Counted from the stretch's first letter, positions 20,188 through 44,529 are shown. The stretch: DNA of 63,339 nucleotides from Gemmatimonadota bacterium (GCA_020350785.1 CP070722.1:4020692-4084030); one strand, 5' to 3'. Notes: generated by a model not told the origin, from the sequence alone. A program made the numbers and translations.

Positions 20188-21319
20188 CCTGCCGCGCCGG
20201 GTTCTCTTTCTGGCCGACGATGTGGGTGGTGGGACCGGGAACCACCTGTTCGCTCTGCTCGAGCATTGGGACAGGTCGCGTTGGCGGGCGCGGGTTGTCA
20301 GCCAGGCGCGCCGTTACGACGGTCGTCTAAGCCCCGACAGCACGGTTGAATATGCCCCGGCCCCGCAATGGTACGACCGTTATCCCTTGGCGCAGGTGAG
20401 GCGCCTGCTCCAACTCCGGCGCTCGATAGTCGCCGACCCTCCGGATCTCGTTCACACCTATTTCTTCTGGTCGATCATCTACGGCCGGCTGCTCAAGCGT
20501 CTCGGTGTGATTCGCGCCCTGGTGGAGAATCGCGAGGACATGGGGTTCAGTTGGGGGCCGCGGGAGTACCGGCTGCTTCGGCTCACGGCGGGCATACCTG
20601 ACAGGGTGATCTGCGTCGCCGAGGCTGTGAGGCAGGTCGTGCTGGAGAGGGAGCGTGTGGAGCCGGCGCGGGTGGTGGTGCTACGTAACGGAGTCGAGCC
20701 AGTGGCGGCAGCCTCCGAGGAGCGAGCCGCGGTGCGCAGCGAATTCGGCCTCGGCGACGAGCATCTCGTCATTGGGATGGTTGCCAATCTCAACCGCGCT
20801 GTCAAAGGTGGTACCTACTTCCTCGAGGCGATACCGACCATCGTGCGAGAGGTACCCAACGCGCGCTTCCTCATCATCGGACGGGTGGAGGGGGAAGAGG
20901 AATTGCGGGCCAAGGCGCGAGCGCTTGGAATCGAGGGCTACCTCACCTTGGCTGGTTATCGCGGCGACATCGCGAGCTGCTACGAGATCATGGATCTGTC
21001 GGTTCTGACCTCGCTGTCGGAGGGTCTCTCGATAACCTTGCTGGAGTCGATGAACCACGGTGTCCCTGTCGTGGCCACTCGTGTAGGAGGCAACCCGGAG
21101 GTCGTGATCGAGGGGGAAACGGGGTTCCTGGTGCCACCGCGCGACGTCCCGGCGTTCGCCGGGCGGGTGGTTCAAGTGCTAAGGGACCCGGCCCTGCGCG
21201 GCCGGATGAGCGATGCCGCCCGCGCGCGGATCAGGCAGGAGTTTCAGATCCGTTCCGTCGCGGCACGCTATCTAGATATCTATGAGGACGTGTTTCGGAA
21301 CGCGAACCCGACAGGCTGA
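20165..21319 (+). CDS. Glycosyltransferase family 4
   Basis: GGGTGNH, VHTY, NGVE, VANLNRAVKG, SLSEGLSITLLESM, VATRVGGNPE. Start ATG 20165. Confidence 0.92.
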   Translation: MSEQVYGNLPRRVLFLADDVGGGTGNHLFALLEHWDRSRWRARVVSQARRYDGRLSPDSTVEYAPAPQWYDRYPLAQVRRLLQLRRSIVADPPDLVHTYFFWSIIYGRLLKRLGVIRALVENREDMGFSWGPREYRLLRLTAGIPDRVICVAEAVRQVVLERERVEPARVVVLRNGVEPVAAASEERAAVRSEFGLGDEHLVIGMVANLNRAVKGGTYFLEAIPTIVREVPNARFLIIGRVEGEEELRAKARALGIEGYLTLAGYRGDIASCYEIMDLSVLTSLSEGLSITLLESMNHGVPVVATRVGGNPEVVIEGETGFLVPPRDVPAFAGRVVQVLRDPALRGRMSDAARARIRQEFQIRSVAARYLDIYEDVFRNANPTG

Positions 21320-22373
21320 GCTCCCCCGTCCTCACCAACTGGCTTTTCTCCCCACGAACCACATCCTTCACGCGCTGGAATCCGCTAACGAATTGAGCGA
21401 CGTGCGGCAAGCTGTCTGCGTTGCCGAAGCGCCGAAGCATGTAGCGGGCGTCGGGATTGGCTCGAAACCAGGACGAATCGTTGTAGCCCGTCTCGGTGGC
21501 GACGGCCCCCATGAAACCCAGGGACTTGAGAACATCGATCTCACGCCTTCCAAAGTCTTGGAGCCGGCCATTGGGGTAGGCCATTATCGGAATCGGGCGG
21601 TAGGCTTCGTCACACAGGCGCCTCCACGAATCCTCGATCTCGCGCCGCGCCTGCTCTGCGGAGGCCTGTGACAGCACCGGATGGTTGACTGTGTGCGGGG
21701 CGAAGGTCATCACGCCCTCCTCGCAGGCGCGCAACTGATCCCATGACATCGGGGAGTACTTGGGAGGGGCGCGGTCTGGGAGCTCGACTTCGGCGCTGGC
21801 AGCGAGAGACTGGATAGCCGCGTCCTTGTCGGCGTCGCGCACCGCCTTGCAGCGTTCCTTGAAGTCTTCGCGTGCCCGATTGCGGTGCTGGATGTCTTCC
21901 CAGTAGTAGCGCAACTCGGAATCCCCGATGATGAGGCGCAGATCCCTGCGAGGTGTATGGTCGAAGACGTAGGTGATCTTATCCCACCAAAACCACATCT
22001 TCTGGTCCAGGAAACCTGTCGTGACAAAAGTGGTAACGGGGCAGTCGAACTCGGCGAAGAGCGGTGCTCCGACCGTCGCCTGGTCGAAGTAGCCATCGTC
22101 AATCGTCACGGCGACGGCGCGGCGCAGCGGCCGCCCATCGCCCGCCAAGCGGTGAATCATCTCCACGAGAGTGAGGAGCTCGTAGCGCTCGCGTCGGAGG
22201 AACTCGAGGACTCGGCGCAATGCCTGGGGGTCACGGCCGTCGATTCCCAGCTCGGCATCACGAAATCTGTGGAGTCGAAGGATGACTCCGCGGTCATGGA
22301 CTAGTGGCGTAAACAGCGCGCCAACGGACGGGAGTGATATTACGCTGCCAACGGCTTTCCCGATCACACTCAC
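21231..22373 (-). CDS. Polysaccharide deacetylase (CE4/NodB)
   Basis: VTIDDGYFD, FAPHTVNHPVL, MAYPNG, LRRF. Start placed at GTG 22373, which overlaps the upstream stop as GTGA. Confidence 0.88.
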   Translation of the reverse strand: MSVIGKAVGSVISLPSVGALFTPLVHDRGVILRLHRFRDAELGIDGRDPQALRRVLEFLRRERYELLTLVEMIHRLAGDGRPLRRAVAVTIDDGYFDQATVGAPLFAEFDCPVTTFVTTGFLDQKMWFWWDKITYVFDHTPRRDLRLIIGDSELRYYWEDIQHRNRAREDFKERCKAVRDADKDAAIQSLAASAEVELPDRAPPKYSPMSWDQLRACEEGVMTFAPHTVNHPVLSQASAEQARREIEDSWRRLCDEAYRPIPIMAYPNGRLQDFGRREIDVLKSLGFMGAVATETGYNDSSWFRANPDARYMLRRFGNADSLPHVAQFVSGFQRVKDVVRGEKSQLVRTGELSLSGSRSETRPHRYLDSVPRRNGSETPA

Positions 22374-23344
22374 GACTTTCGCACCCTTTTCTTTCGGCGC
22401 CTTCTCTGTCTCAACTTCTGCCAGAAGAGATCGCGAGCCCAGCGCCATTGCATGGATCTCCACTCGCGTGGCGGTAGCGAGTCGGTAACGTGTTGCTCGC
22501 GGAGCCAATCGAGCAGCTCGCTGACGGTGGGAAACCAGCCGTCGCGACGAGCCAGGTCCTCGAGCTGTCGGCGGGTAGTTGGATTCACCTCCCCATCTTG
22601 AACGAAGCCTTTTCCGAAATGGGTAGCCACGATGCAGAAACCGCGCTCTGCCTCCAGCCGGGCCACGTTGTCCTGTCGAAGCAGGCTGTTGAACTCGAAA
22701 CGGTCCTCCGCATCGGCGGCGGAAAACCACCAGCGAACCAGGGGGCGGGACGGGTCATGGTACGGCATCGACGGGTTGACCTTCGCCAGGTTGATTTCCC
22801 GGAAGGTCAGATTGCGAACGTAAGCTACGTGTTGGCCACAGAAATCGCCCCACCAGTACGGCGAGCCCTCCACGTGCCCCAGGTAGTAATCGGCCGGACG
22901 GCCATTGAAGCGACGGTACAAGGCGTTCACCACCAGCTGATCCACCCGATCTGCACCCCAGTACAGGTTCTCGCGATTGAAAGCGTGGTTCGCGTGGACT
23001 CGCGGGTAGGCGCCGAAGAGATCTGCCAGGCGCCGGAAACCGGCCAGCGTTCGCTCGCGCTTGCTCGACTCCATGGTCGCGCCGTGTGAGGCGACCTCGA
23101 ATCCTCGACGCTGCAGGTCCAGCGCGAATTCGCGGTACGCGGGATCTTCCAACGTCTCCGAGCTGGAGAAGTTCCGGCTGCCCTCCGGACAGTCCAGCGG
23201 CCAGACGGTCTTTGTCGTCCGCATGTCCAGTCGCTCGAGAAGGCGGTAGACCGGCTCCACGTTCTCCACCGTGGCGACGTCGGTATCGTCGATGACGGTG
23301 AAGGCGAAGCTCTTGCCGCCCGGATAGACTAGGGGGCCTGCCAT
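22370..23344 (-). CDS. Divergent polysaccharide-deacetylase-like protein
   Basis: FTVIDDTD (motif-1-like), FEVASHGA, HANH, IVATHFG; NodB-like barrel pattern but atypical motifs. Confidence 0.6.
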   Translation of the reverse strand: MAGPLVYPGGKSFAFTVIDDTDVATVENVEPVYRLLERLDMRTTKTVWPLDCPEGSRNFSSSETLEDPAYREFALDLQRRGFEVASHGATMESSKRERTLAGFRRLADLFGAYPRVHANHAFNRENLYWGADRVDQLVVNALYRRFNGRPADYYLGHVEGSPYWWGDFCGQHVAYVRNLTFREINLAKVNPSMPYHDPSRPLVRWWFSAADAEDRFEFNSLLRQDNVARLEAERGFCIVATHFGKGFVQDGEVNPTTRRQLEDLARRDGWFPTVSELLDWLREQHVTDSLPPREWRSMQWRWARDLFWQKLRQRRRRKKRVRKS

Positions 23345-23710: not shown

Positions 23711-25066
23711 TCAGGCATCGCGGTGCCGACGAGCCGGTCGGGGGCCGGCGTCTGCGCGAGCCCTGACGAGCGACTCTCCGTAGGGGCGGAAGCCTGCCTG
23801 CCTGACGACCGTCCAACCGATCGCCGCACCGGCCGCGGCAACCAGGACGTCGGTTATGTCGAAGAACCGCTCGGCCACGAGAATCTGTCCGAGCTCCAAT
23901 ACCATTGCGAGTTCGAGGGCTGGTAGGAAGCCACGCAGAGCGCCCTGGCGCCGCAGCGGCCAGACGGCGAGCAGAGCTCCGGCCGGTAGGTAGAGGAGGA
24001 AGGAGGCGATCACGTCGCTGACGCTGAAGAGGTCGACGCGAGGGGCGTGGGAGGCGAGCGGTATCCAGCGGGTGATGGAGAACTGCTCGGCGATCGTGGC
24101 GAGATTCAGCTCGGGTAAGAAGGGTCGCCAGGCCCAGACGATCAGGAGCGCTGCATAGGCGAAGGCCAGCGCCAGCGGGCGATTCGGCCCACGCAGAATG
24201 CGCGTCAGTTTCGGGATGTAGGCGCGGGCGGCCCAGGCGCCGGCGGCAATTGCCGCTGCATGTATGACGATCGCGCCCAGCTCGATGGTCTGACCGAAGA
24301 AGCCATGCCCGATCTCGGCACCCACCGCGAGGGCGAGACCGCCCACGGCCGTGCTGCGTGCCGCCGCGGCGTAGCTCCAACCGAGCTCGACCAGGGCGGC
24401 CACAGCGAGGGCGCCGACGGGTATGAAGATCAAGATGTCCAGTACGGGGATGGCGAAAAGAGATTCAGCGCTGAAGGAATCGAGCACGGCACCGAACCGG
24501 CTCAACGGCCCGCCGTAAACGCCAGGGAGCGGCTCGCTTCTGAACAACGGCAATAGCGCTTCCAAGAAGGCGGCGCAGCCGTAAGCGCCGGCGAACAAGA
24601 AGGCGGGCATCCCGACAAAGGAGCGCCGTCCCCGCGCGCCGCGCACCGCCTCGGTGAGAAGCGCGATGGTCACCGATCCCAAGAGCGCGCCACCGCTATT
24701 GGTGAGCAGATCGAGAGCGCTGGCATTGCGCGCAGCCGAGAAGAGTTGCAGGGTCTCGATGCCGAGGCTCAATAAGACGCCCGTCAGCGTCGCCTGGGCG
24801 ATCGCGCTGCGAGCCCTCGCCACAGCGCTCGTCGCCATCCAGAGTGCTCCCCAGCCGGCGAACAAGGCGACGTTGCGAACCGCGTCCACGGCGTCTCGGG
24901 CACTGACTACGGGTTGGAAAGCCCGGATGAGGCGCTCGGCTACGGCGGCGAAATCGGGGTCGGCCCGGAACGGCACGAGAGTCGCCAGAGCGAGCACGCC
25001 TATGTATGCGAGGCGCGCTGCCCTCACTCTCGTGGTGCCCGACGCGTTTCCTGCGGTAGAAGGCAT
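23711..25066 (-). CDS. Multi-repeat VanZ-like integral membrane protein
   Basis: VanZ-type pattern N..LF..G / E..Q....R....D...N..G..LG repeated along the protein. Start ATG 25066 or TTG 25087. Confidence 0.75.
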   Translation of the reverse strand: MPSTAGNASGTTRVRAARLAYIGVLALATLVPFRADPDFAAVAERLIRAFQPVVSARDAVDAVRNVALFAGWGALWMATSAVARARSAIAQATLTGVLLSLGIETLQLFSAARNASALDLLTNSGGALLGSVTIALLTEAVRGARGRRSFVGMPAFLFAGAYGCAAFLEALLPLFRSEPLPGVYGGPLSRFGAVLDSFSAESLFAIPVLDILIFIPVGALAVAALVELGWSYAAAARSTAVGGLALAVGAEIGHGFFGQTIELGAIVIHAAAIAAGAWAARAYIPKLTRILRGPNRPLALAFAYAALLIVWAWRPFLPELNLATIAEQFSITRWIPLASHAPRVDLFSVSDVIASFLLYLPAGALLAVWPLRRQGALRGFLPALELAMVLELGQILVAERFFDITDVLVAAAGAAIGWTVVRQAGFRPYGESLVRARADAGPRPARRHRDA

Positions 25067-25114
25067 CGATCCTACGGAGTCAACCAACTTGCCATTCGCG
25101 GGAAGCTCGCGGGC

Positions 25115-26296
25115 TCAGAAGACCTCATCTGCGCTGCTGTCACCACGTGTCAACCACCATCTGTCGAGCTGGGGCGCCAGCTCGACGTTCGGCCAGCGCA
25201 CCAGGGCATGAACGTTACCCGGCAAGCGAAGAAAGGCGCGACGGCGCAGGAGCGGACCGATAGCGAAATGGCTGGCGCTGCACAACAGGGCGTCGGCGCC
25301 GAGCTGACGGGCGAGCCGCTCGGCCGTGGCGAGCAGGGCGAGGCCGACGTCGGAGCGGTCCGGCGGGAAAAGCAGATCAGAGAGGGTCGCCACTCGGAGC
25401 CCGGCAAGCCTGGGGTCGCCGTTGCGGCGCGGCCGGCGAACGAAGACGATCCCCTGGAGGCCGGAGTCGTCATGAACGGTCCCGGCCAGGTAGCGGTCCG
25501 TCTCGCTCTTGTGGTATCGCCAGCGATAGTAAGAGCCGTCGCGCGCGGGTGCCGCCTCGATCTGACCGCGGCTGCGGATCCAGAGCTGATCGCAGGCGTT
25601 CTCATCGATCTCCGCGGGTGCGTGCGTGACCAGGCCACTTGTGCGGCCGGTGCGGGCCACCAGCCAAAGCCCCGTTGCCGCCGCCACCAGCGCGCCGCCG
25701 AGCGAGGCCAAGCCCGAGCGCTGGGCCAACCGCAGGGCCGTGTGCACCCAGCGCGGAACACTGGCCAGGCCGACACCGTCGAGGTCGAGGCGCCTGGCGA
25801 ATTGCGCTGGGTTGAGGATTCTGATGTGATTGGGCAGCGCACCGAGATCGGTGAAACCGAGCGCTTGAAACAGCTTCCGAGGAGCGGGCTGCACGACCAT
25901 GGCCAACGCCGTGTCGAGCCGATTTACTGCTTCCTTCAGCACCATGAAGCCGACGGGTCCGTTGCGATGCTCCGGCAGGACCATCAGGCCCTTGATCCAG
26001 TGAGCCGGTGTGAGTTCGCCGGCATGCCAGAGACGGATTGGGATGGTCGTCACGTGCCCGAGGGCGCGCCCGGCGGAAAGAAGTAGAAATGTGGGCGGCT
26101 CTTGGCCTCCGGCGGCCGGGTTCTCGGTCGCCGCGAAGCTGCGCGCTTTGCGCAAACCCGCGGCGCTGGCGTTGGGATCCCAGGTCTGTGCGATGAATTC
26201 GGCAAGCGCAGGCAGATGGTGATCAGCCACGCGGACGACTTCGGTTCTTGCGCCCTGTCCGTTCATCGGAGCTGTCGGGCTCTCCGAGATTACCAA
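25115..26296 (-). CDS. Tandem-GNAT-fold acyltransferase
   Basis: GHVTTIP..L......W...LMVLPEHRNGPVG (GNAT motif A-like), second-domain ARDGSYYRWRY; follows an ACP gene directly. Confidence 0.7.
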   Translation of the reverse strand: MVISESPTAPMNGQGARTEVVRVADHHLPALAEFIAQTWDPNASAAGLRKARSFAATENPAAGGQEPPTFLLLSAGRALGHVTTIPIRLWHAGELTPAHWIKGLMVLPEHRNGPVGFMVLKEAVNRLDTALAMVVQPAPRKLFQALGFTDLGALPNHIRILNPAQFARRLDLDGVGLASVPRWVHTALRLAQRSGLASLGGALVAAATGLWLVARTGRTSGLVTHAPAEIDENACDQLWIRSRGQIEAAPARDGSYYRWRYHKSETDRYLAGTVHDDSGLQGIVFVRRPRRNGDPRLAGLRVATLSDLLFPPDRSDVGLALLATAERLARQLGADALLCSASHFAIGPLLRRRAFLRLPGNVHALVRWPNVELAPQLDRWWLTRGDSSADEVF

Positions 26297-26517
26297 GAGG
26301 CGCCCCGGCTTTGAAGTATCCGCTTGATGGTCGCGACGTTGGTCATCTGGAGGGCGTCATCAGGCGAGAGCGAGACTCCGTAGGTGGACTCGAGCTCCAT
26401 TATGAGGTTCACGTGCCCCATCGAGTCCCACTCCTCGAGTGTGGTGTTGGACGTAGTGTCGTCGATCTTGCCGGGATTCACGCCGAAGATCCGGCCGATG
26501 ATCTGCTCCGGTGCCAT
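26290..26517 (-). CDS. Acyl carrier protein (ACP-B)
   Basis: 75 aa, acidic, WDSMGHVNLI phosphopantetheine serine motif; start overlaps the FkbH stop as TGATG. Confidence 0.9.
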   Translation of the reverse strand: MAPEQIIGRIFGVNPGKIDDTTSNTTLEEWDSMGHVNLIMELESTYGVSLSPDDALQMTNVATIKRILQSRGASW

Positions 26518-28775
26518 CAAGAGACCTCCAGACGAATCCACTTTGGCGGAACCGTCAGCTCATCCGCCAGTGATCTCTGCCAGCGGGTCGCCTGGCCCTG
26601 GGCGCCGAGCTCGGTGAAGCCGTGGCGCGGGTAGAAGTCACGGGCCGGGGCGTTTTTCGCGGTCTCAATGTACTCGCCGATCAACTCCTTGGCACCGGCG
26701 GCCCGGGCGTCCTCGCTGAGGGTGGCCAGAAGTGCCGTCTCGACGCCGTATCCGATTACGCGGCAGCTCATTAGGAAGCTGTCGACGATCCATGTGCCAT
26801 TCTCGGTCCGGACAAGGGCGGTGGCTACGAGACCGTGGTCGCCGAACCGGTCGCGGGCCTTCAACGCGTAGAGTCGGCAGGTCGGATCCCTGGCTACGGC
26901 ACCGAGCTCTCCAGCCGTGTATCGACGAGTAGTGAGATTGAATTGGTTGGTCCGCTGAAAGAGCTGGTGAACGCGAGCCAGGCTGGCTTCGTCCACCTGT
27001 CCGATGCTGACGGCGATCTCCAGCGATTCCAGGTACTCGTCCAGCGATCCGGCGCCCAAACGCGTCTGGTCGCGCTGGCGTTTGGCGCGGTAGAGCTGGG
27101 TCCGGGTTCGGTCCTCCTCGGTGACGGTCAACTTCTGCAGCTGGGGTAGCGCTTCCACGGTGGACCGATAGAGCGACGGATCATTGGGCATCTCGGGCAC
27201 TAACACTTGCGGTAGAGCCTGCCGCATGATCGCACGCTCGTTCGGGTTGTCATCGATGAATATCAACGAGTCGATACCGATGTTCAGCTCTTCGGCAAGG
27301 CTCTTCATGTTCTCTGGCTTGGGGAGCCAGTTGATACGCATCGCGCTGAACACGTCTTCGCGAAGGACCATCGCTTCGTGGGAGCGGACGACTTCTAGAG
27401 CGTCCTCCGGGTTGTTCTTCGAGTTGATTGCGAGAAGAAAGCCGCGCTCGGTCAGTGAGAGCAAGAAGCGCTGGAATTCCTGATACTCGGAGCCCGGTGA
27501 GGTTCCACCCAGCCTGATGCCGTGGGGCCCGTCCTCCCCGACGATCCCGCCCCACAGCGTGTTGTCGAGGTCCAGAACGACGCACTTCCGCGTCAGCCCT
27601 TTGGCCGGAGCGATGTAACGCGTGTAGGCGCGTGCCACCTCACCCACCACCGGTCCGCAGAGCCGCATGGACGCCATGTGACGCATCTTGGGGTTGTCGT
27701 AGCTGCCACCGGGCCGCCGCGCGAAGATCTCGGCCATGTTCAACAGGAACGCGCGAGGAAATCGGCTCAGCCCCTCGGCCAGTTCGGCGTCCAGATCAGC
27801 CAGCCAGGCTGATCTGGACTTGCCGGCACGCCCCCCCAGGATTCCATACGGGTCGGCGAAGGCCGAATGGAAGCCGTGGACGACCAGGACCCCGTCGGAC
27901 CAATCTGAGAATTGGGACGCCGCTGCCAAGATACGCCCGACGGCGGTCGCGCCGGCCTCGTCGAGTTGAGCTTGCGCCGGGGATCCGCTCGTCTCGGTGA
28001 TCAGATCATCGATCGCGACCGAGAGAAAAGCCACCTCGGGATCGAAGCGTCGAAGCCCTGAGTCTTCGCCGATGATCTCCTGCGCCCAGGAGTTGAACGG
28101 TGTGACGTAGATCTCGGGCTCCAGACCCAGGCCGCGGCATTCCAGGTCGAGATAGTGCGCCAAAGGGTCGACGGTAAACGAGCTCATGAAGGCGACCCGA
28201 ACGGGCGGTCCCCCGGACGGCTGGAGGGAGCCGCGCCTGCGCCAGATATAGTGGAGCGTGGCCTGGCTGTCGTCGGCACGGCCCAACTCCGTCAGCAGTC
28301 GATGGGCTTCCGCCGAATCGTGCCCCCGCAAGGCTCGATCGACTGCTGCGCGCAAGAGCCCGGCGTGCCCGGGCTGACGCTCCAGCACACGAGCCAGGGT
28401 CTCCTTGACGCCAGCACCTGGCTTCTCGTAAGGAAGCTCGACGGCCAGTGCGGCGACGGTGTCGGCACCCACGATGTCCGCGTAGCGGCTGGCCAGCTGC
28501 GCCAAGTTGCTGACCCGGGCACCGTTCGAATCTCCCAGACTGGCTCGCACCACCGTATCGACCAGCTTCCCCAACTCGCCGGCCGGGCAAAGCGCCCGCG
28601 CCAATTGCTCGTTGACGAGGAGCCAGGCCACCGCTTCGGAGGGATCCAGCTCCGCGAGCGCCGCGATCGCCTGAGGCGCCGTGGACGCTTTGGTGGCGGC
28701 TTTGACCAGCTGCTCGAGCAGGTCACTCGGCAGCCCGCCCAGGCGACTATCTGTAAGATCTCGTACACTGCTCAC
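26517..28775 (-). CDS. FkbH-like HAD-IIIC glyceryl-ACP forming phosphatase/transferase with N-terminal extension
   Basis: DLDNTLWGG, SKNN, INWLPK, FIDDNP.ER, RTNQFNLTT, DRFGDHG, MSCRV (acyl-carrying Cys). Confidence 0.92.
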   Translation of the reverse strand: MSSVRDLTDSRLGGLPSDLLEQLVKAATKASTAPQAIAALAELDPSEAVAWLLVNEQLARALCPAGELGKLVDTVVRASLGDSNGARVSNLAQLASRYADIVGADTVAALAVELPYEKPGAGVKETLARVLERQPGHAGLLRAAVDRALRGHDSAEAHRLLTELGRADDSQATLHYIWRRRGSLQPSGGPPVRVAFMSSFTVDPLAHYLDLECRGLGLEPEIYVTPFNSWAQEIIGEDSGLRRFDPEVAFLSVAIDDLITETSGSPAQAQLDEAGATAVGRILAAASQFSDWSDGVLVVHGFHSAFADPYGILGGRAGKSRSAWLADLDAELAEGLSRFPRAFLLNMAEIFARRPGGSYDNPKMRHMASMRLCGPVVGEVARAYTRYIAPAKGLTRKCVVLDLDNTLWGGIVGEDGPHGIRLGGTSPGSEYQEFQRFLLSLTERGFLLAINSKNNPEDALEVVRSHEAMVLREDVFSAMRINWLPKPENMKSLAEELNIGIDSLIFIDDNPNERAIMRQALPQVLVPEMPNDPSLYRSTVEALPQLQKLTVTEEDRTRTQLYRAKRQRDQTRLGAGSLDEYLESLEIAVSIGQVDEASLARVHQLFQRTNQFNLTTRRYTAGELGAVARDPTCRLYALKARDRFGDHGLVATALVRTENGTWIVDSFLMSCRVIGYGVETALLATLSEDARAAGAKELIGEYIETAKNAPARDFYPRHGFTELGAQGQATRWQRSLADELTVPPKWIRLEVS

Positions 28776-28987
28776 GTGTCTAACACCCGCCTCGGTATTG
28801 TCATGCCCATCACGAGACCTGCCCTAATCCAGCGCAAGCTCGGCATGCAAGGTTTATACAAGCGGCGGAGCCAGTAAGAGCCCGGTACATCGATGGGAAT
28901 CGTTGATCTGACGCCAAGATCGAGGGTCCAAGAATCGTCGGTTCCCGGTCATGTTGCAAGGCTGCAACAGCCGGAACCGTGGTGTCG

Positions 28988-30469
28988 TCAGTCGCCGGCC
29001 CGGTCCGCGCCGAGCAGGGCGAGCAATTCGCGGCGTTTGGCCTTTCCGGATGCCGTGCGAGGCAGCTGGTCGACCTCGAAGACCTCTCTGGGCCACTTGT
29101 ATTCAGGGAGCTTGCCCCTGAGGTGTTTGCGCACTTGAGGCAGGGGGGGTGCCGTGCCCTTGAGGAAGCAAGCTACGATGACCTCGCCCCAGGTTTCATG
29201 GGGCGCCCCGACGACGACGCACTCGTGGATGCCGTCCATCTCGACGATGGCTTCTTCGACCTCCTTGGGGTGAACCCTGTAGGCTCCGGTCTTGATGAGG
29301 TCGCTGCGGCGGCCGGTGATGAATATGAACCCGTCTTCGTCCACCATCGCCAGATCGCCGGTCCAGAGCTTGCCGTCCACGATGACGGCGGCGGTGGCTT
29401 CGGGATCATTCCAGTAACCTGTCATGAGGTTCTCACCCGAAGCTACGATCTCTCCCTCCTCCCCCGGGCTGATGGGCCGTCCGTCCTCCGCCAGCACCTC
29501 CAAAGTCACGCCCGGCATGCCCGTACCGATACTGTTGGGCCGTCCGCGCAACTGTTGAGGTGGCAGGTAGCTGAGCCGTGCACTCGCCTCCGTCTGTCCA
29601 TACATCAGGAAGACTTTGACGTCAGGGAAGAGTCGCTGCAGGCGGTGCAGGTTGGCCGTTGGGAGCGCGCCGCCGGCGCACGTCAGATAGCGCAGCGACG
29701 GTAGCGAGTGGTTCTCCAGGTGGCCCCGCTGAAGTAACAGCGCGAACGTCGAGGGAACACCGCTGAGGCCGGTGCAGGCTCTCTGCTCCAGGCGTTCGGC
29801 GACGTTGACGGGGAAGGCCATGCTACCCAACAGAGCCAGGCTGCCGCCCACTCGGCAATGTGTCTGAAGCAGCGAATTGCCGTAGCTGTAGACGAAGTCG
29901 AGTACCACGCCCACGCGGTCGCTGGCGGTCAGCTCGAGGTACTCGACAATTCCGTCCGTATTGGCTCGTAGAGCCGCGTGGCTCAGTGTTACGCCCTTCG
30001 CTTTGCCGGTGGTGCCGCTGGTGTAGATGATCTGGGCGATATCGGTGCCACCGCCGGCGGGAGACTCTTCGAGTGGGGCTGCCCGACTGAGCTCTTCCAC
30101 CGGGTGGCGCGCCAGATCGGAGAGCTCGGGAGTTGCGCCGCGGCCTGGATCGACGACCAGCAGCTTGGGCTGGCAGTTTGCGGTCACGTGCTCGAGCGCC
30201 CTTGTGGTCGTCCCGGGCTGCAGCCCGACGGCGATCGCACCGACCAGGAGAGTGCCGTAGTAGGCCGCCAGGTAGTCTATCCCGTTTGGAAGCAGCAGCA
30301 AGACACGGTCGCCGGGCTGGATGCCGCTTTCAATCAAGCCGCCCGCGAATCGGCGTGCCCGTCCGAGCACTTCGCCGTAGGTGTATGTCTGGCCGGACTC
30401 CTCGGTGATGAACGGCGACTCCGGGCCCTCTCGCGCCCAGCGGATCAGGTCTTCGGCGATGTGTCTCAT
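28988..30469 (-). CDS. Adenylate-forming acyl ligase (AMP-binding, ANL superfamily)
   Basis: YTSGTTGKAKG, MYGQTEA, TGDLA, GRRSDLIK, PRTASGK; ATGA overlap with the larA-like gene. Confidence 0.92.
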   Translation of the reverse strand: MRHIAEDLIRWAREGPESPFITEESGQTYTYGEVLGRARRFAGGLIESGIQPGDRVLLLLPNGIDYLAAYYGTLLVGAIAVGLQPGTTTRALEHVTANCQPKLLVVDPGRGATPELSDLARHPVEELSRAAPLEESPAGGGTDIAQIIYTSGTTGKAKGVTLSHAALRANTDGIVEYLELTASDRVGVVLDFVYSYGNSLLQTHCRVGGSLALLGSMAFPVNVAERLEQRACTGLSGVPSTFALLLQRGHLENHSLPSLRYLTCAGGALPTANLHRLQRLFPDVKVFLMYGQTEASARLSYLPPQQLRGRPNSIGTGMPGVTLEVLAEDGRPISPGEEGEIVASGENLMTGYWNDPEATAAVIVDGKLWTGDLAMVDEDGFIFITGRRSDLIKTGAYRVHPKEVEEAIVEMDGIHECVVVGAPHETWGEVIVACFLKGTAPPLPQVRKHLRGKLPEYKWPREVFEVDQLPRTASGKAKRRELLALLGADRAGD

Positions 30470-31740
30470 GCGCTTTCCTGTGGTCCAAGCTGGCAGGAGC
30501 CCGCCGGAAAGATGCCGACTCGTGCGCCGTCCCCATGCCTGTTCAGCAGGGCGTGGATGAGCTCATCCCAGTCTCGGTAATGGGGGTAGCCACTCCAGTG
30601 TGTCACGTGGCAATCATTCTCGCTGATACCCGGGGCGAATACGTGGAGGGCCCTGTTGCCCAGGTAGCGTTTGGGCCCGCGAGGCACCCGGTGGAGCGGC
30701 ATGCCCTCGTCGAAGAGGCCGTGATGCCCGCGGCCCTGATGGCAAGCGGCCATGAGCACGGCGCTACCTTCACCCGCCAGGAACTGGGCGCCGCCGGTGC
30801 GCAAAGGGCTGTAGCCGTTCTCGGCCTGAAGAAATTCGCCATCCTTCGGGTACGCATTGCAGATGAGAACATCGAAGCGGCCGGACATGGGAGTTGCGTA
30901 GGCCGAGCGTGCTCTTTGGCAACCCCGCTGGTGCGACTCAAGGGGATCTCCGTAGTAGATCTCACGGATGCGTCGGCTCGTGTCTACGAGACAGTTCACC
31001 GAGAGGTGAAGCGGCAGTTCTCGGGCGACGCGATCGACCTCCATGCGGATCCGATTCCCGTGCAGTTTAGCCACTCCACCGAAGCCCATCATGCCGAGCT
31101 TGTGAAGCCACTCCAGTGCCTCGCGCGCCGCGAGACCTGGAAGTACGATCTTGCCGCCGCCGGAGAATCCGGCGAATGGATTGGGTATGATCGTGCCCAC
31201 GCCAATGCGGATGTCCGCTGCGAGGAAGGGGGGGTCGATGCGCAGCGGGATCTCGCCGAGCATGAGGCTGCTGGTCGCCAGCTCGCCCTGCATATCGTGG
31301 AGGCGGACTCGATAGCGATCGGCTATGGCACCGCCGACCTTGGCCCGGACTTCATCCGGCCGTGGCGCACGGTGCGCGCCCAGCGCCATGACCAGGTCGA
31401 TTGCCGCGGGGTCGATCCCACCCTCGAGGAGCCCGGTCTCAACGGCCGCCAGCACCGCTTCTAGCGCAGCGGGCCGCGTCGGGTCGTCTACGGCGATGGA
31501 GACGCTCGCGCCGGGCGCGACCAATCGGCGCACCGCTTCCCTGAGGCCATCGAGGTCAGGTTCGGCTTCCGCTCCCCAGCCGCTCATCTCGAGGCGCTCG
31601 ACGTCCCACCCGGGCGGAAAGCCGAACCTCTCTGTCTCGGGCGCGCCCTGCCAGGCCCGCCAGGGCAATTCGAGTGACTGATGGTCGGCCGGCCAGCGAT
31701 TCACCCCTCTGCCGCTCCCTGGGGAATCCTCAGATGTCAC
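30466..31740 (-). CDS. LarA-superfamily (nickel-pincer lactate racemase-like) protein
   Basis: VDDPTRP, ALGAHR, P.PFAGFSGGGK..LPG, WLH, YPKD...Q motifs. Confidence 0.85.
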   Translation of the reverse strand: MTSEDSPGSGRGVNRWPADHQSLELPWRAWQGAPETERFGFPPGWDVERLEMSGWGAEAEPDLDGLREAVRRLVAPGASVSIAVDDPTRPAALEAVLAAVETGLLEGGIDPAAIDLVMALGAHRAPRPDEVRAKVGGAIADRYRVRLHDMQGELATSSLMLGEIPLRIDPPFLAADIRIGVGTIIPNPFAGFSGGGKIVLPGLAAREALEWLHKLGMMGFGGVAKLHGNRIRMEVDRVARELPLHLSVNCLVDTSRRIREIYYGDPLESHQRGCQRARSAYATPMSGRFDVLICNAYPKDGEFLQAENGYSPLRTGGAQFLAGEGSAVLMAACHQGRGHHGLFDEGMPLHRVPRGPKRYLGNRALHVFAPGISENDCHVTHWSGYPHYRDWDELIHALLNRHGDGARVGIFPAGSCQLGPQESA

Positions 31741-31987
31741 CGCTGGACCCGCCGAGCTTCCGCTCGATCAGGGCGGCGATAGCCTCGACCGTCTCGAAGT
31801 TGTCGGGCAGCAAGTCATCGTCCTGGACCTCGATTCCGAAGGCGGCTTCCAGGAACGTCACCAGCTCCTCCATCCCCAGGCTGTCGATGAGGCCGGTCTG
31901 AAGCAGAGGTGTCTGGGTGTCTACTTGGAAGTCGTCCGGTAGACCTTTGGACTCTGCCAGGTATGCAATGACCTTCTCCGCAATCAC
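31730..31987 (-). CDS. Acyl carrier protein (ACP-A, DltC-like)
   Basis: GLIDSLGMEEL serine motif, FGIEV..DDLLPDNFET; AGGAG RBS. Confidence 0.92.
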   Translation of the reverse strand: MIAEKVIAYLAESKGLPDDFQVDTQTPLLQTGLIDSLGMEELVTFLEAAFGIEVQDDDLLPDNFETVEAIAALIERKLGGSSGDI

Positions 31988-32016
31988 GGAATACTCTCCT
32001 TGAAGTTGTATCGATC

Positions 32017-33012
32017 TCAGATATCGCGATCGCCGATCGTCATGTACCAGTTCGCTACGTCCTCGACTCGCGCCTTGCCGAAGAAACCTGCGCCGCCGTA
32101 GCTGACCGTGGCTTGCTCCTCGTCACGCTCCCAGAAGCCCAGGCTTTGGAGGGCGGGGGTCCCCGGGAATGCCTTCTGGACTACGACATTCAAGCTTTGT
32201 GCCCCGGTCGCCGCGGCCCGGCGGGCGGCCGCCAGCAATAGCGCCCTCTCGACGCCGAGGCCGGGGATGCAGGCCATGTCCCGGACCTTCGCGGTGGGCA
32301 CGCCCGGCTCGCTGACGAGATAGCCGACGAGGACCCCATCAACGGATCGCCGGGCCTCGAGCACTGTCGCCGCCACAGCCGGCTGTCGAAGAAAGCGCCA
32401 GCGCAGGAAGCTCGCGGTGCGCCGACCGATCACCGGGTACTGCTGACCCAGCTCCAGATCCAGATCATCGTAATCGGCGCTGAAGTCATCGACTTCCTGG
32501 ATATCGAAGCGCCGACCCCTTGTACCCTGCAAGATCCTGCGGGCTCGCAGGCCGGAGTCCGCTACGGGTGCGAGTAGTCGCGCGAGCCCGCGACCCAGCC
32601 GGCGTTCCAGGATCGCGCCCGCCCGCAAGGGGTAGACCCAACGCTCCATCGTCGAGAGCTGAGCGTGACCCACACGCCGGTGAACGGCCAGCATCGCAGG
32701 CAGGGGGTGGGCGTAGAGAAAAGCATACACGCCCGCATCGACCAGACTCTTGGCGGGGCGCCTCAGCATCAGGGCCGGCCCGAGGCTGCGATGGCCCGCT
32801 GCCACGCTGAAGTCCCCACAATTGAGGGCAGTGACCACTTCGCCATCTACCCAGAAGGCGCGGGGGTAACCAGAAGTGAATCCGACCGGCTCGCCGGAAG
32901 GTTCCTTCAAGATCCAGATTCGGGCCGCGCCGGCTGGGTTGTCATGGTAGAGCCAGCTGAAGCGCGCGCCGGACTCCTGCACGCCTCGGATATCACGAAA
33001 TAGCCGAACCAC
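32017..33012 (-). CDS. Tandem-GNAT-fold acyltransferase
   Basis: VGFTSGYP, DFSVAAGHRSLGPALML, second-domain GRRTASFLRWRF; same family as 25115-26296. True start may be a little upstream. Confidence 0.75.
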   Translation of the reverse strand: MVRLFRDIRGVQESGARFSWLYHDNPAGAARIWILKEPSGEPVGFTSGYPRAFWVDGEVVTALNCGDFSVAAGHRSLGPALMLRRPAKSLVDAGVYAFLYAHPLPAMLAVHRRVGHAQLSTMERWVYPLRAGAILERRLGRGLARLLAPVADSGLRARRILQGTRGRRFDIQEVDDFSADYDDLDLELGQQYPVIGRRTASFLRWRFLRQPAVAATVLEARRSVDGVLVGYLVSEPGVPTAKVRDMACIPGLGVERALLLAAARRAAATGAQSLNVVVQKAFPGTPALQSLGFWERDEEQATVSYGGAGFFGKARVEDVANWYMTIGDRDI

Positions 33013-33364: not shown

Positions 33365-34129
33365 CTACCAGGCTCCGCGCCGGAACAGCATGACCGGCAG
33401 CGTCCGGACCATGATCTTGATGTCCTCAATGGCGGAGCGCCGCTGAATGTACTGCAGGTCGAGGGCGAGCTTCGCCACGACGTCGTCCATCGAGCTGTCG
33501 TAGCGCAGGTTGATTTGAGCCCAGCCCGTGATGCCGGGTCGCACACGCTGACGCTCTCCGTAGCGGTCGACGTGCTCGCGCAGGCGAGCGAATATCTTCG
33601 GCTGTTCGGGGCGCGGTCCCACCAGATTCATGTCGCCGCGCAAGACGTTCAACAATTGCGGCAACTCGTCCAGACGGTACTTACGGAGAATTCGGCCTAC
33701 GGGCGTCACGCGCGGATCGTCCGGCTTTGCCCACACCTGATCGCCCGGCCGATCGTTCACGTACATCGTCCGGAACTTGTACATGCGGAACGGCCTGCCG
33801 CCGCGGTCGTATCGCCGCTTGCAACCCGCCGTCGCTCTGGGGCCGTTGCGTCGATCGAGGCCGACCCGCTGCTGCACGAACAGCATCGGACCCCGCGACG
33901 TCAGCTTGACTATGACACCGATCACCAGCATCAGCGGAAGCGCGGGGATCAAAAGCAGGGCGGCTGCAGCCAAATTGACCATGCGTCGCGCAACCTCTGA
34001 ACCTCGTGTGCCCTGTCTCACACCGGGACGCGCATCCCGTGCCCTGCCATTGCGGTAGCCTGTCCGGGCGTGCGCGGCCCGCACGAGTTCAACCGGGTGA
34101 CGTGTGGTCTGGATGGTCGATGCTTCCAT
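33365..34129 (-). CDS. Priming phosphoglycosyl transferase (bacterial sugar transferase, small monotopic type)
   Basis: Single re-entrant helix, [50 protein letters not shown]. Start 34129 or 34174. Confidence 0.93.
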
Positions 34130-34226
34130 TAGCTCTCTATTTCTTGCCGCACGCTTGGCGACTTTCATTCTCACAGTGTAAGCCAGCTGTCGCTGTTGTT
34201 ACTTTGAGGGCGCACCGCGCTCCGGC

Positions 34227-34650: not shown

Positions 34651-36189
34651 TCATTCGTTGTTGGTGACGAGTGCGCCACGCTGGAGCCCGTGCTTCTCCA
34701 TCAGGCGATAGATGGTGGTGCGGTCTATCCCGGCGATGCGAGCGGCCTTCGACATGTTGCCTTCGGCACGGCTCACCACCCAGGTCAAGTAGCGTCGCTC
34801 GAATTCCGCAGTGATTCGGTCGCGGGCTTCGTGGTACGGCTCTTCCACCATGTCGAAAGCGAAAGGCATGGTACCCTCGATCGGCTTCTCGCCGTCTATC
34901 GACGGGATGTCCTCGGGTCCGATGTCCATCCCCGGATCGAGGAATACGACGGCGTGCTCGATCGCGTTCTGCAGCTCGCGGACGTTGCCGCGCCAGGGCC
35001 TGGATTGCATCGCCTGGACGGCGGTGGGCGCGAACTTCGGCAGGGGGGTTCCGCGATCCCGATGCTTCTTCCAATAGTGGGCGAGGAAATGCTTCGCCAG
35101 GATCGGGATATCCTCGGGACGCTCCCGGAGCGGCGTCACGCGAATCGGTACGACCCGGAGCCTGTAGTAGAGGTCCTGTCGCAGGTTTCCGTTCTCGACC
35201 GCCTCTTCCGGATCTTGATTGGTCGCGGCGATGAACCGGACATTCACCACAGCATCGGTCTTGGTGCTGCCGATCCGGCGAACCACGCCGTCCTGGATGA
35301 CCCGTAGCAGCTTGGCCTGGATCGCCTGCGACATCTCGGTGATCTCGTCCAGGAACATGGTGCCGCCGTTGGCGATCTCCAACAGGCCGGGCTTATCTCG
35401 GATGGCTCCCGTAAACGAGCCTTTGACGTGCCCGAACATCTCGGATTCCAGAAGCGTCTCCGGCAGGGCCGCGCAGTTCAGCGGTACGAGCGGCTTGCGG
35501 TTCCTGCGGCTATGGTGGTGTATGAACTGAGCGATGAGCTCTTTTCCGCTCCCACTCTCGCCGGTGATGAAGACCGACGCGTCGGTGGGTGCCACCCGTC
35601 GCGAGACTTCCATTACCCGCTGGAAGGCTGGGGAGATTCCCAGCACGGTCACCTTTTCGCTGTGTCCGTGCTCCTTCTTGAGCTCAGTTTGAATCTCACG
35701 CGTCTGGCGGGCTGCCAGCACGACGTGCGATGCCCGCCCCAGCAACACCTGCAACTGAGTGGCGGAGAACGGCTTGGGCAGATAGTCCCAGGCTCCGGCG
35801 TTCAACGCTTCCATGCTGGAAGCCACGCTGGGCTTACCTGTGATCACTATCGCCACCAGATCCGAATTGGCCTCGAGACCGGCACGCAACAACTCGAGCC
35901 CGGTGACCTCCGTCATGAAGAGGTCGATCAGAGCGATATCGAATTTCCGCCGCCGGAGCATGTCGAGCGCCTCACCGCCTCGACTGCAGACGGCGACATC
36001 GTAACCCTCCAGGTTGAGAATGCTGGTGCAGCTCTCCCGCAGGGTATGATCGTCGTCGATGATCAGAATGCGTAAGCTGGACTTCACTTCCGGGGCGAGT
36101 CCCGCGGTAGCCGACGGGAAATCCTCAGCGACCCCATTTGGCGGAGTTCCGGAACCGCCAGAGTTGCCGGACAGGGCACGACTACGCAC
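34651..36189 (-). CDS. Sigma-54-dependent response regulator (REC-AAA+-Fis HTH; NtrC/PrsR-like)
   Basis: ILIIDDD..LIDLFM..KPF receiver; GESGSGKE, ESEMFGHVKGSFTGA, FLDEI, GNVRELQN; AARIAGIDRTTIYR HTH; GGAGG RBS. Confidence 0.95.
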   Translation of the reverse strand: MRSRALSGNSGGSGTPPNGVAEDFPSATAGLAPEVKSSLRILIIDDDHTLRESCTSILNLEGYDVAVCSRGGEALDMLRRRKFDIALIDLFMTEVTGLELLRAGLEANSDLVAIVITGKPSVASSMEALNAGAWDYLPKPFSATQLQVLLGRASHVVLAARQTREIQTELKKEHGHSEKVTVLGISPAFQRVMEVSRRVAPTDASVFITGESGSGKELIAQFIHHHSRRNRKPLVPLNCAALPETLLESEMFGHVKGSFTGAIRDKPGLLEIANGGTMFLDEITEMSQAIQAKLLRVIQDGVVRRIGSTKTDAVVNVRFIAATNQDPEEAVENGNLRQDLYYRLRVVPIRVTPLRERPEDIPILAKHFLAHYWKKHRDRGTPLPKFAPTAVQAMQSRPWRGNVRELQNAIEHAVVFLDPGMDIGPEDIPSIDGEKPIEGTMPFAFDMVEEPYHEARDRITAEFERRYLTWVVSRAEGNMSKAARIAGIDRTTIYRLMEKHGLQRGALVTNNE

Positions 36190-42165: not shown

Positions 42166-43254
42166 CTATCCTGCGGCCATTGACTTGCGCGGCGGCTCTT
42201 CCTGGGCCGACGGCTGTCGATCCGGCCCTGTCAGGGGAGTGGCCGACCGGCCGGGAGGCCGGCGCCGTTTGAAAAAGCGCTCCAGCAGCATCTCCCGGTT
42301 ATCGGCCAGGAAATCGGCGAGGGTCTTCTCTGTATTTGCGCGCGTCGAGATGTAGCAGCTTTCACACGTGTTGTTCGCTGTGAACTCACGCAGCATGTCC
42401 CGCTGTGAGCGGTACTTGGCCCATACCATGGCACAGGGCGTGAGCGCCCCGTCGGGATTGATGACGAGGAAGCGTCTGCCCGCCTGGCAGCCGGGGATGC
42501 CGCGCTCCGTGAAGAAGCGATAGTACTTCCACATGACGCGCTCGGAGCTGTAGACCGGGAAGCCCGCTTTCTTCATGTCGATCACTCTCTGGAAACAGTC
42601 GCGCACCTCCTGAAGCTGGTCGGGGCGCGGCAGGCCGTTCTCGTCGTTGACGCGGAGCGGGCTGTAGACCGAGAAATTGATGCTGGTGTTCCAGCGGCGA
42701 GCCAGTTCCACCATGGCTGGAAGATCGCGGTAGTTCCAGGCGGTGATACAGGAATTCAAAGACAAATCACCGTTCCCCAGAGCGGTGATCTCGGGAATCA
42801 CGCGGTCCATCTTCTCGAATAGACCGGGGATGCGCCGAAACTCGCTATGCCGTTCGTCCGGGAAGTCGAGGGAGATCGAGAACTGATTAATGCCCGCCTC
42901 GCGCAGCTTCCAGTACTTGTCTACGGTCAAGGCGGCGGCGTTGCTGACTAGCACCATCCATGGCAGATCTCCCGGGTTGGCCATGGCGCGCGCGATCTCG
43001 TAGACGTCGCCCCGGGCAAGCGGCTCACCTCCGGAAATGTGGGATACCGCGGGTCGCAGCTCCCTACATATTGCCGCGTAGTCCTCCGCCTGCAGCCGGC
43101 TCTCCCCTTTCACTGGGCCGCCCCAGTTGCAGTGCCAGCAGTTGGCCGTGCAGTAGTGAGTGACCTCGAACGACACTGAGAGCGGAAGCTGTGCGAATTT
43201 ATTGCGTATGCCGCGGGCCAACATCTTAAGTGCCAAGCGAGCGGTGATATTCAT
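42166..43254 (-). CDS. Radical SAM protein with Twitch/SPASM-like auxiliary domain
   Basis: CTANCWHC, SGGEPL, ISLD, C-terminal CQAG..F..INPDG.LTPC and CESC. Confidence 0.9.
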   Translation of the reverse strand: MNITARLALKMLARGIRNKFAQLPLSVSFEVTHYCTANCWHCNWGGPVKGESRLQAEDYAAICRELRPAVSHISGGEPLARGDVYEIARAMANPGDLPWMVLVSNAAALTVDKYWKLREAGINQFSISLDFPDERHSEFRRIPGLFEKMDRVIPEITALGNGDLSLNSCITAWNYRDLPAMVELARRWNTSINFSVYSPLRVNDENGLPRPDQLQEVRDCFQRVIDMKKAGFPVYSSERVMWKYYRFFTERGIPGCQAGRRFLVINPDGALTPCAMVWAKYRSQRDMLREFTANNTCESCYISTRANTEKTLADFLADNREMLLERFFKRRRPPGRSATPLTGPDRQPSAQEEPPRKSMAAG

Positions 43255-44389: not shown

Positions 44390-44529
44390 CCCCATCCTGC
44401 AGAGTGTCACAATCATCCAAGTATAGACGTCGTTCCAGTGGGGATGGCGATTGCGCTACGAGGGTTGGGCGCCTCGTGTTTGGAGGCCGCCGCGCTCTCT
44501 TTGGAAGTGGAAGCTGCAGTGGAGGAACC

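Follow-up and report, generated by a model that had tools for sequence, protein, structure and literature searches.

Chito-oligosaccharides are de-N-acetylated and then N-acylated in a manner dependent on an acyl carrier protein (ACP) through the NodB/NodA/NodF system. The set defined by TIGR03098 consists of an exosortase A-associated acyl-CoA ligase with an ACP, a decarboxylase, and two hydrolases, and the tetronate genes rfbK-O of Vibrio cholerae O1 form a set of the ligase/ACP type within an O-antigen locus. It is established that enzymes of the FkbH/OzmB type convert 1,3-bisphosphoglycerate to glyceryl-S-ACP, and the C-terminal Cys of FkbH reportedly serves in the catalytic transfer, as described for OzmB. 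In Flavobacterium psychrophilum, wfpD/wfpG are predicted to N-acylate UDP-4-amino sugars in the manner of PglD, with an O-antigen-specific ACP as the acyl source (PMC6519341). A 2017 study of nonulosonic acids in Tannerella still regarded N-glyceroylation enzymology as a major challenge, its basis being unknown (PMC5378307). Here, we describe seven genes in a 63,339-nt stretch of DNA from a Gemmatimonadota bacterium (GCA_020350785.1 CP070722.1:4020692-4084030; this whole stretch is called the window below). The genes form two neighbouring cassettes, A and B, each with a putative acyl-loading enzyme, an ACP, and a tandem-GNAT acyltransferase. We hypothesise, with modest confidence, that these are two independent, horizontally mobile cassettes in which a hydroxyacyl thioester on a private ACP is passed to a tandem GNAT and from there to a sugar of an exopolysaccharide (EPS).

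All seven open reading frames (ORFs) were verified at 33012-25115 on the minus strand. Cassette A starts with G1 (32017-33012; 331 aa), a soluble tandem-GNAT acyltransferase without a curated family, which is proposed to be the transferase of this cassette. It is followed by ACP-A (31730-31987; 85 aa; PP-binding, 7e-6; DSL serine), by a LarA homolog (LarAH; 30466-31704; Lar_N, 6e-27) that is a putative nickel-pincer nucleotide (NPN) enzyme, and by an adenylating ligase of the ANL family (28988-30469; 493 aa; AMP-binding, 3e-71, and AMP-binding_C), the proposed loader of ACP-A. After an intergenic gap of 212 nt (28776-28987), cassette B comprises an FkbH-domain protein (26517-28775; 752 aa) proposed to be a glyceryl-S-ACP synthase, ACP-B (26290-26517; PP-binding, 4e-6; DSM serine), and G7 (25115-26266; 383 aa), a tandem-GNAT acyltransferase with a weak Acetyltransf_1 match, which is proposed to be the transferase of cassette B. 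The longest ORFs of LarAH, ACP-B, and G7 begin further upstream (31740, 424 aa; 26541, 83 aa; and 26296, 393 aa, respectively). Judging from database gene calls and the gene junctions, LarAH probably starts at 31704 and ACP-B at an ATG at 26517, and the called start of G7 is at 26266. The start codon of the ligase overlaps the stop codon of LarAH (ATGA), that of ACP-B shares 1 nt with the stop codon of FkbH (TGATG), and Shine-Dalgarno-like motifs were found upstream of both ACP genes (AAGGAG for ACP-A, which has a GTG start, and GGAGG for ACP-B). Family scans of the seven proteins and the scanned flanking genes found no ketosynthase (KS), condensation, or thioesterase domain. The initial annotation had described seven co-oriented genes in two tight blocks separated by a 212-nt gap, without any of these three domains and with a loader, an ACP, and a tandem GNAT in each block. 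The coordinates and codon overlaps, the family scans, and the structure model of G1 and its profile homology with G7 presented below confirm this description.

The occurrence of cassette A in other genomes was evaluated by a neighbourhood census of nine ACP-linked loci, which is a part of the LarAH clade; relatives of LarAH that have Lar_N and no call for LarA_C (PF21113) make up ca. 66 clusters. In these nine loci, which come from several phyla (three of them from one family), LarAH lies between the ACP and the ligase or directly after the ligase, and the stop and start codons at the ACP/LarAH/ligase junctions often overlap. The locus with the most similar LarAH (L015, 84% identity) has 11 genes in the same order as the window. 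In a different genus of the same family (L028/G049, 62%), cassettes A and B are adjacent and divergently transcribed. A Gemmatimonadota metagenome-assembled genome (L016, 60%) carries G1-ACP-LarAH-ligase without FkbH, beside CE4 and Bac_transf genes. A KSB1 genome (L017, 40%) has the order Wzx, Wzy, ACP-LarAH-ligase-WecB, and a Cytophagia genome (L009, 39%) shows the same arrangement with an inserted type IX secretion system (T9SS) protein. In L018 (37%), the order is ACP-LarAH-ligase-Wzx-CE4, and in L019 (35%), sulfotransferase, GT2, FemAB-like, and UDP-sugar dehydrogenase genes are followed by G1-ACP-LarAH-ligase and then by GT4, VanZ, and PEP-CTERM protein genes. Finally, an Elusimicrobia locus (L021, 32%) encodes NeuB, a DegT aminotransferase, an ACP, the ligase, LarAH, a PglD-like N-acyltransferase, a LarC fragment, and a CMP-transferase.

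Cassette A recurs in Gemmatimonadota-like, KSB1, Cytophagia, and Elusimicrobia genomes as well as in metagenome contigs, with G1 orthologs directly upstream of ACP-LarAH-ligase in L015, L016, L019, and L028. Every context-checked LarAH linked to an ACP and a ligase has polysaccharide-assembly genes beside it (glycosyltransferases, Wzx/Wzy, CE4, aminotransferase, WecB). In a maximum-likelihood tree, six of the seven included context-checked ACP-linked LarAHs fell into one clade (support 96/97). Both cassettes are rare in the window's phylum; the LarAH clade was found in three of the 401 genomes. Remoter LarAHs (L020, L029, L030, and L010-L014 of Chloroflexi) have other neighbours. Those of Chloroflexi were rejected as members of cassette A as they have no ACP or ligase beside them, and L010 is assigned a different function because its context is an aminotransferase and an amidohydrolase.

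Some of these loci contain further genes of note. In L030 (1781-8236), a LarAH with 31% identity lies near an AMP-binding ligase, a CoA-transferase (CoA_transf_3), and a NifU-like protein, and may be a CoA-thioester-linked LarA homolog of another pathway. A 235-aa Ni_insertion (LarC-type) gene is located 2.4 kb downstream of the Elusimicrobia LarAH (L021:11716-12423); a cofactor-maturation gene travels with the cassette there, inside a nonulosonic acid-like cluster. Beside cassette A of L016, at the place held by FkbH in the window, a 601-aa protein (12743-14548, minus strand) combines a kinase-like region (weak LanL/LanKC and Pkinase matches) with a methyltransferase domain. Proteins of 820-855 aa encoded upstream of ACP-LarAH-ligase in KSB1 (L017:7180-9642) and Cytophagia (L009:4885-7452) were considered as enlarged transferases and rejected, as they are heparinase II/III-like (HepB, 127 bits, below the cut-off) and not GNATs.

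In cassette B, the FkbH domain (TIGR01686, aa 395-721) scored 324.9 bits against a cut-off of 146.65, and its HAD-IIIC subdomain (TIGR01681) scored 72.9 bits against 35.75. The motifs DLDNTLWGG, SKNN, DDNP, and MSCRV, the last of which contains the conserved cysteine, are conserved, with DLDNT and MSCRV kept in five homologs. The retention of the HAD motif and the MSCRV cysteine supports the earlier suggestion that FkbH is a glycerate loader. No polyketide context (KS, methoxymalonyl or tetronate tailoring enzymes) was found in the scanned window genes. The protein is extended by ca. 390 residues at its N-terminus; Pfam assigns nothing to residues 1-392, and residues 294-540 match the uncharacterised B. 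fragilis protein BF1531 (PDB 3slr, 7e-39). In the window, L015, and G049, FkbH has an additional Ala/Leu-rich segment of ca. 180 aa at the N-terminus (aa 1-190 in the window), without a family assignment, which the shorter FkbH proteins of L023 and L024 (570-581 aa) lack.

The ACP-FkbH pairing is also present in L015, L023, L024, and L028, and G7 adjoins FkbH and the ACP in the last three of these. In loci L022-L024, cassette B consists of a G7-type GNAT, a homolog of the CE4-like protein w324, an ACP, and an FkbH protein of 570-581 aa, surrounded by exosortase, Wzy, PMT_2, CE4, FemAB, and AsnB genes. The w324 gene of the window (22370-23344, minus strand; 324 aa) has no Pfam or NCBIfam match. 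Its product shows homology to the partners of G7-type GNATs, being 59-66% identical to that of the gene directly after these GNATs in the distant EPS loci L022, L023, and L024. The AlphaFold 2 (AF2) model of w324 had a mean predicted confidence (pLDDT) of 62, and its best Foldseek matches were the CE4 deacetylase 3rxz (7.8e-6) and ArnD. We consider w324 to be probably the fourth component of cassette B. It is followed by a CE4 polysaccharide deacetylase (21231-22373, minus strand; 380 aa; Polysacc_deac_1, 6e-11), a candidate source of free amine, and the same gene follows w324 in L015. The G7 family was found in 11 of the 401 genomes of the phylum.

Cassettes A and B are adjacent in only three related genomes, namely those of the window, L015, and L028. 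Because the cassettes occur apart from each other, and once divergently, their "mirror image" in the window is a local juxtaposition and not a conserved design, and the twin unit seen in the initial annotation has to be given up. Its broader claim of two carrier-dependent acyl-supply modules of a polysaccharide pathway fared better, as each module recurs in distant EPS, O-antigen, or nonulosonic-acid loci, and the neighbourhood search that it had proposed for LarA, ligase, ACP, and GNAT found LarA, ligase, and ACP together in several phyla alongside polysaccharide genes. Each cassette is thus a conserved functional unit tied to glycan loci, and A and B are independent and mobile.

A housekeeping AcpP with 64% identity to E. 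coli AcpP is encoded elsewhere in the genome. Since this canonical AcpP is separate, ACP-A and ACP-B are dedicated carriers, as had been suggested at the outset. They share 35% identity over 37 residues only, and all NCBIfam ACP matches of ACP-A fell below the cut-off. The best NCBIfam match of the ligase was TIGR03098, the exosortase A-associated ligase, with 316.3 bits against a cut-off of 592.35. The scores of the ligase and ACP-A for the DltA and DltC equivalogs were far under the cut-offs. A substrate call for the ligase was attempted and abandoned, as its PDB and NCBIfam neighbours are mixed (nonribosomal peptide synthetase A-domains and feruloyl-, malonyl-, oxalyl-, and fatty-acyl-CoA ligases).

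G1 has no Pfam or NCBIfam match, and the best Pfam GNAT score of G7 was 17.5, below the gathering score of 20.7. The AF2 model of G1 (pLDDT 90.9; predicted TM-score (pTM) 0.88) shows two GNAT halves, and its top PDB matches in Foldseek were N-myristoyltransferases and the Eis-like acetyltransferase 3n7z (E ca. 1e-13, TM 0.65). As modelled, G1 is a double GNAT of the Eis/N-myristoyltransferase-like fold. G1 and G7 were not significantly similar in pairwise BLASTP (E 0.063), whereas an alignment of their family profiles with hhalign gave a probability of 98.4% (E 8e-15, 324 columns) and extended to a common C-terminal W..T.GD motif. At the profile-to-profile level, G1 and G7 are clearly remote paralogs, with G7 homologous over its full length, which is in line with the paralogous tandem GNATs of the initial annotation. 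A search of 1.8 billion proteins with the G1-family profile yielded 1622 representative clusters at E<=1e-30; at E<=1e-10, their number rose to 7080. Members of this family are typically ca. 345 aa long and match Acetyltransf_1 or _9 with their N-terminal half and Acetyltransf_17 with their C-terminal half; of the 11 closest G1 homologs, only one had a precomputed Pfam call. The G7 family contains at least 196 clusters at 90% identity. One match to the G1 profile, P0298 (805 aa), naturally joins a GT4 glycosyltransferase to a G1-like tandem GNAT; by the Rosetta-stone argument, this hints that the uncurated family acts on glycans. Weak matches to NodA and to the N-acyl amino acid synthase FeeM were seen for L024_319, a distant relative of G1. 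The use of an acyl-ACP donor and a sugar amine acceptor by these GNATs is suggested by their adjacency to ACPs and CE4 genes.

The Lar_N domain of LarAH (PF09861) scored 94.6 bits against a gathering cut-off of 23.3. The best PDB match of LarAH was the malate racemase Mar2 (6d6z, 2.6e-26), and its best curated equivalog was the LarAH6 malate racemase, with 156.9 bits, below the cut-off of 500. LarAH is the sole Lar_N protein in the genome, in which larC (381.6 bits), larE (313.5 bits), and larB (283.7 bits) all score over their cut-offs at scattered positions. The presence of larB, larC, and larE together with only one Lar_N protein makes a nickel-pincer enzyme plausible. The motifs DDPTRP, GAHR, SGGGK, and WLH are present, and the equivalents of Lys184 (cofactor tether), His200 (Ni ligand), His108 (catalytic), and Arg75 (DxTRP) are invariant in 40 aligned sequences. 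From these residues, LarAH is plausibly a working NPN enzyme. The second catalytic residue, His174, is replaced by Asn in IIPNPFAGFSGGGK and in the eight sequences nearest to it in the alignment, all at 52% identity or above, and is kept in the rest of the clade, including the ACP-linked members L017, L018, and L019. The known LarAHs are racemases or epimerases of 2-hydroxy acids, and the group with His replaced by Asn (group 17), which has no known substrate, is uncharacterised; Asn is unable to act as an acid/base, and such LarAHs showed no lactate racemase activity (PMC12611868). Two-base racemisation is, thus, not assured because Asn sits at the position of His174, and the racemised D-lactyl group named in the initial annotation was a guess. 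Tyr294, Gln295, and Lys298 contact the substrate carboxylate in LarA (PMC11851776). LarAH reads FLQAEN in this region, in which Gln295 is kept while Tyr294 and Lys298 (to Asn) are replaced, and this is the case throughout the NAYPKD clade.

Based on these results, we hypothesise that the two cassettes work as described below. In cassette B, FkbH would take 1,3-bisphosphoglycerate and dephosphorylate it on its HAD domain, its conserved cysteine would pass the glyceryl group to ACP-B, and G7 would move it onward. In cassette A, a small 2-hydroxy acid would be adenylated and then loaded on ACP-A by the ANL ligase. LarAH, with the cofactor made by LarB, LarC, and LarE, would fix the configuration at C2, while the acid is still free or once it is bound to the carrier as a thioester, and G1 would transfer the product. 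The acceptor would most likely be the amino group of an amino sugar on a cytoplasmic nucleotide- or lipid-linked intermediate; this amine may be exposed by the CE4-type deacetylases of the array in the window and made directly by the DegT aminotransferase in Elusimicrobia. The net outcome would be a swap of N-acetyl for N-glyceroyl and N-(2-hydroxyacyl) groups. We infer all the substrates, the acceptor, N- as opposed to O-acylation, and the step of LarAH. Signal peptides are absent from all seven proteins, and no members of the MBOAT or DltD families were found among the large ORFs of 1-46 kb in the window. Because the locus carries CE4 deacetylases and lacks MBOAT/DltD partners and signal peptides, a cytoplasmic logic of the NodB/NodA or PglD kind fits better than that of Dlt, and the term "Dlt-like" used in the initial annotation is loose.

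Other readings of the LarAH step were weighed against this scheme. LarAH could act as an epimerase on a repeat-unit sugar or sugar acid, with the ligase, ACP, and GNAT forming a separate, plain acylation route. LarA-family enzymes that act on sugar acids exist, e.g., of the gluconate 2-epimerase type (PMC7583248), NeuB and a CMP-transferase are encoded in L021 of Elusimicrobia, and the carboxylate-binding Lys298 is absent from LarAH. However, a LarAH belonging to another branch of the pathway is hard to reconcile with its linkage to the ACP and ligase in nine loci, often with overlapping codons, and neither NeuB nor NeuA was found among the scanned window genes; we regard this reading as improbable. 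It also seems unlikely that LarAH is no racemase here, being instead a non-canonical NPN enzyme acting on one enantiomer (e.g., a hidden-redox isomerase) or a non-catalytic partner, so that the acid is transferred as supplied. In its favour, PNPFAG replaces PH.FAG in P0001-P0015, and the loss of the acid/base and the lack of lactate racemase activity in group 17 mentioned above also speak for it. On the other hand, Asn is found in nine sequences down to 52% identity that retain every cofactor-binding residue, which speaks for a selected, working enzyme. In addition, LarAH is the only Lar_N client for larB, larC, and larE (cofactor users without Lar_N were not searched for), and the sister cassettes of the same order in L017, L018, and L019 retain His. 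The more specific proposal that LarAH is an NPN enzyme acting on a carrier-tethered 2-hydroxyacyl thioester and setting the stereochemistry of the N-acyl group, in which the Asn subclade would be a one-base variant made directional by the transfer, is tentative, and we hold it to be possible though rather doubtful.

The acyl groups might also end up somewhere other than on the polysaccharide; the acceptor could be a protein that is secreted or of the PEP-CTERM type, a lipid head group, or a small N-acyl metabolite. Protein N-acyltransferases are the best Foldseek matches of G1, L024_319 has weak similarity to NodA and FeeM, and L019 and L023 have exosortase and PEP-CTERM genes alongside the cassettes. 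This idea carries little weight with us in view of the polysaccharide-assembly genes at every context-checked locus with an ACP- and ligase-linked LarAH and of the GT4 fusion; double GNATs of the Eis/MshD type, moreover, acylate sugar amines too. An arrangement in series, in which LarAH inverts the glyceryl-ACP made by FkbH and the ligase salvages free glycerate, would account for the adjacency kept in the window, L015, and L028 despite rearrangement, yet it is very unlikely. Cassette A has no FkbH nearby in L016, L017, L018, L019, and L021, cassette B has no LarAH in L022-L024, and each cassette has its own transferase and an ACP that differs from the other. Several points also weigh against our preferred reading, in which private ACPs supply hydroxyacyl groups to tandem GNATs. 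Asn at the His174 position would exclude two-base racemisation under the published mechanism (PMC12611868), the ligase is under the cut-off of every curated family, and the sequences alone give no reading of the substrates. The loss of Lys298 and Tyr294, which was considered as a sign of a thioester substrate and rejected, is non-discriminating because relatives without ACP or ligase neighbours have it too. Besides, the GNAT donor could be an acyl-CoA instead of an acyl-ACP, the KSB1 and Cytophagia loci have a heparinase-like protein and no adjacent G1-type transferase, and the CE4-like label of w324 is tentative because the confidence of its model is low.

The seven genes belong to an array of 12 co-directional genes from 36189 to 21231, all on the minus strand. 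It starts with a sigma-54 response regulator (34651-36189) and a Bac_transf initiating sugar-phosphate transferase (33365-34174; PF02397, 2.6e-59), its first structural gene; the seven genes are followed by a VanZ-like polytopic membrane protein (23711-25087; VanZ, 5.7e-25), w324, and the CE4 deacetylase. The Bac_transf transferase keeps the same position in L015, and a double-VanZ polytopic protein adjoins either cassette in four loci of different lineages (window, L015, L019, and L022). The surrounding EPS locus of ca. 42 kb encodes GT2 and GT4 glycosyltransferases, Wzy, PMT_2, an ABC exporter, two sulfotransferases, an ATP-grasp enzyme, AsnB, a PGA_cap protein, a third CE4, Wzz/tyrosine kinase, Poly_export, and WecB. 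Segments resembling transmembrane helices are absent from G1, both ACPs, LarAH, the ligase, FkbH, and w324, and G7 has a single hydrophobic stretch (aa 185-204). When 24.9-34.7 kb was scanned for promoters and terminators, the number of sites did not exceed that in shuffled sequence, no terminator-like or sigma-70-like site fell in the 212-nt gap, and no convincing sigma-54 -24/-12 element was seen by eye in either intergenic region. Just outside the EPS locus (44254-45777, plus strand, and 42166-43970, minus strand) are genes for a bacterial serpin (PF00079, 1e-109), radical SAM, and VTT-domain proteins, which have no apparent relation to the cassettes as far as seen.

In the literature searched on the LarA superfamily, there was no mention of an ACP, a ligase, or a polysaccharide. 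No publication was found that combines LarA or the nickel-pincer cofactor with an ACP, and nothing relevant was found on FkbH or HAD-IIIC with polysaccharides (most subscription journals lie outside these searches). Within this scope, the searches agree with the earlier remark that the combination of LarA, ligase, ACP, and GNAT is undescribed, and we rate cassette A as the novel part of a carrier-protein-dependent glycan acylation system. Among the features that shape the antigenicity and physical properties of polysaccharides in bacteria are unusual N-acyl groups such as glyceroyl, lactoyl, and malyl. Both cassettes are small sets of soluble enzymes that are open to testing in E. coli. Cassette A would extend the nickel-pincer family beyond free 2-hydroxy acids, and its context yields a substrate hypothesis for the whole LarAH clade, while the context of G1 and G7 suggests a function for a very large GNAT family lacking a curated model. 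If LarAH acts on a thioester, no NPN enzyme before it would have had a substrate that is protein-bound and not a carboxylate, and the nickel-pincer cofactor would gain its first assigned role in glycan biosynthesis, through a cassette spread over at least four named bacterial phyla.

In comparison with the characterised LarA enzymes, LarAH shares Lar_N, the Arg of DxTRP, His108, the Lys of SGGxK, and the Ni-binding His, and its genome contains larB, larC, and larE. It differs in its score for the curated family (157 versus 500 bits), in belonging to a clade without a LarA_C call, in the replacement of Lys298 and Tyr294 and, in its subclade, of His174 by Asn, and in being flanked by ACP and adenylating-ligase genes within glycan loci. 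Cassette B resembles the FkbH/OzmB/Tmn16 polyketide systems that synthesise glyceryl-S-ACP in having a domain over the cut-off, the DxDxT motif, the MSCRV cysteine, and an ACP immediately downstream. Unlike in those systems, there are no KS, methoxymalonyl-ACP tailoring, or tetronate genes in the window; a tandem GNAT and CE4-type proteins come after the ACP, within an EPS locus, and FkbH has the long N-terminal extension described above.

The logic of the NodB/NodA/NodF system, in which a CE4 enzyme frees a sugar amine and a dedicated ACP feeds a soluble N-acyltransferase, is the same as that proposed here. However, the transferases of the window are Eis-like tandem GNATs and not members of the NodA family, and the acyl groups are presumably short hydroxy acids loaded by FkbH or an ANL ligase and not by fatty acid synthesis enzymes. 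The wfpD/wfpG system of F. psychrophilum, published as a prediction (PMC6519341), likewise has a private ACP that feeds an N-acyltransferase in a glycan locus, and cassette A of Elusimicrobia has a PglD-like transferase after a DegT aminotransferase. In F. psychrophilum, the acyl group is built by a KS and a ketoreductase, whereas that of cassette A would be loaded by a ligase and pass via LarAH, and the transferase of the window is a GNAT and not a left-handed beta-helix enzyme.

The Dlt system for D-alanylation of teichoic acid (DltA/DltC/DltB/DltD) shares with cassette A an adenylating ligase and a dedicated carrier serving a cell-surface polymer, and a change, proposed for cassette A, in the stereochemistry of the acyl group within the supply route. 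In contrast to Dlt, the locus of the window has neither an MBOAT protein (DltB) nor DltD, and transfer by GNATs is predicted to be cytoplasmic. The acyl group of cassette A would be a hydroxy acid, and the isomerase would be of the NPN type and not of the pyridoxal phosphate (PLP) type. As in the TIGR03098 set and rfbK-O of V. cholerae, a ligase and a private ACP are encoded inside EPS or O-antigen loci; the PLP decarboxylase and hydrolases of the former, or the alcohol dehydrogenase and LuxE-like enzymes of the latter, are absent here, and LarAH is present instead.

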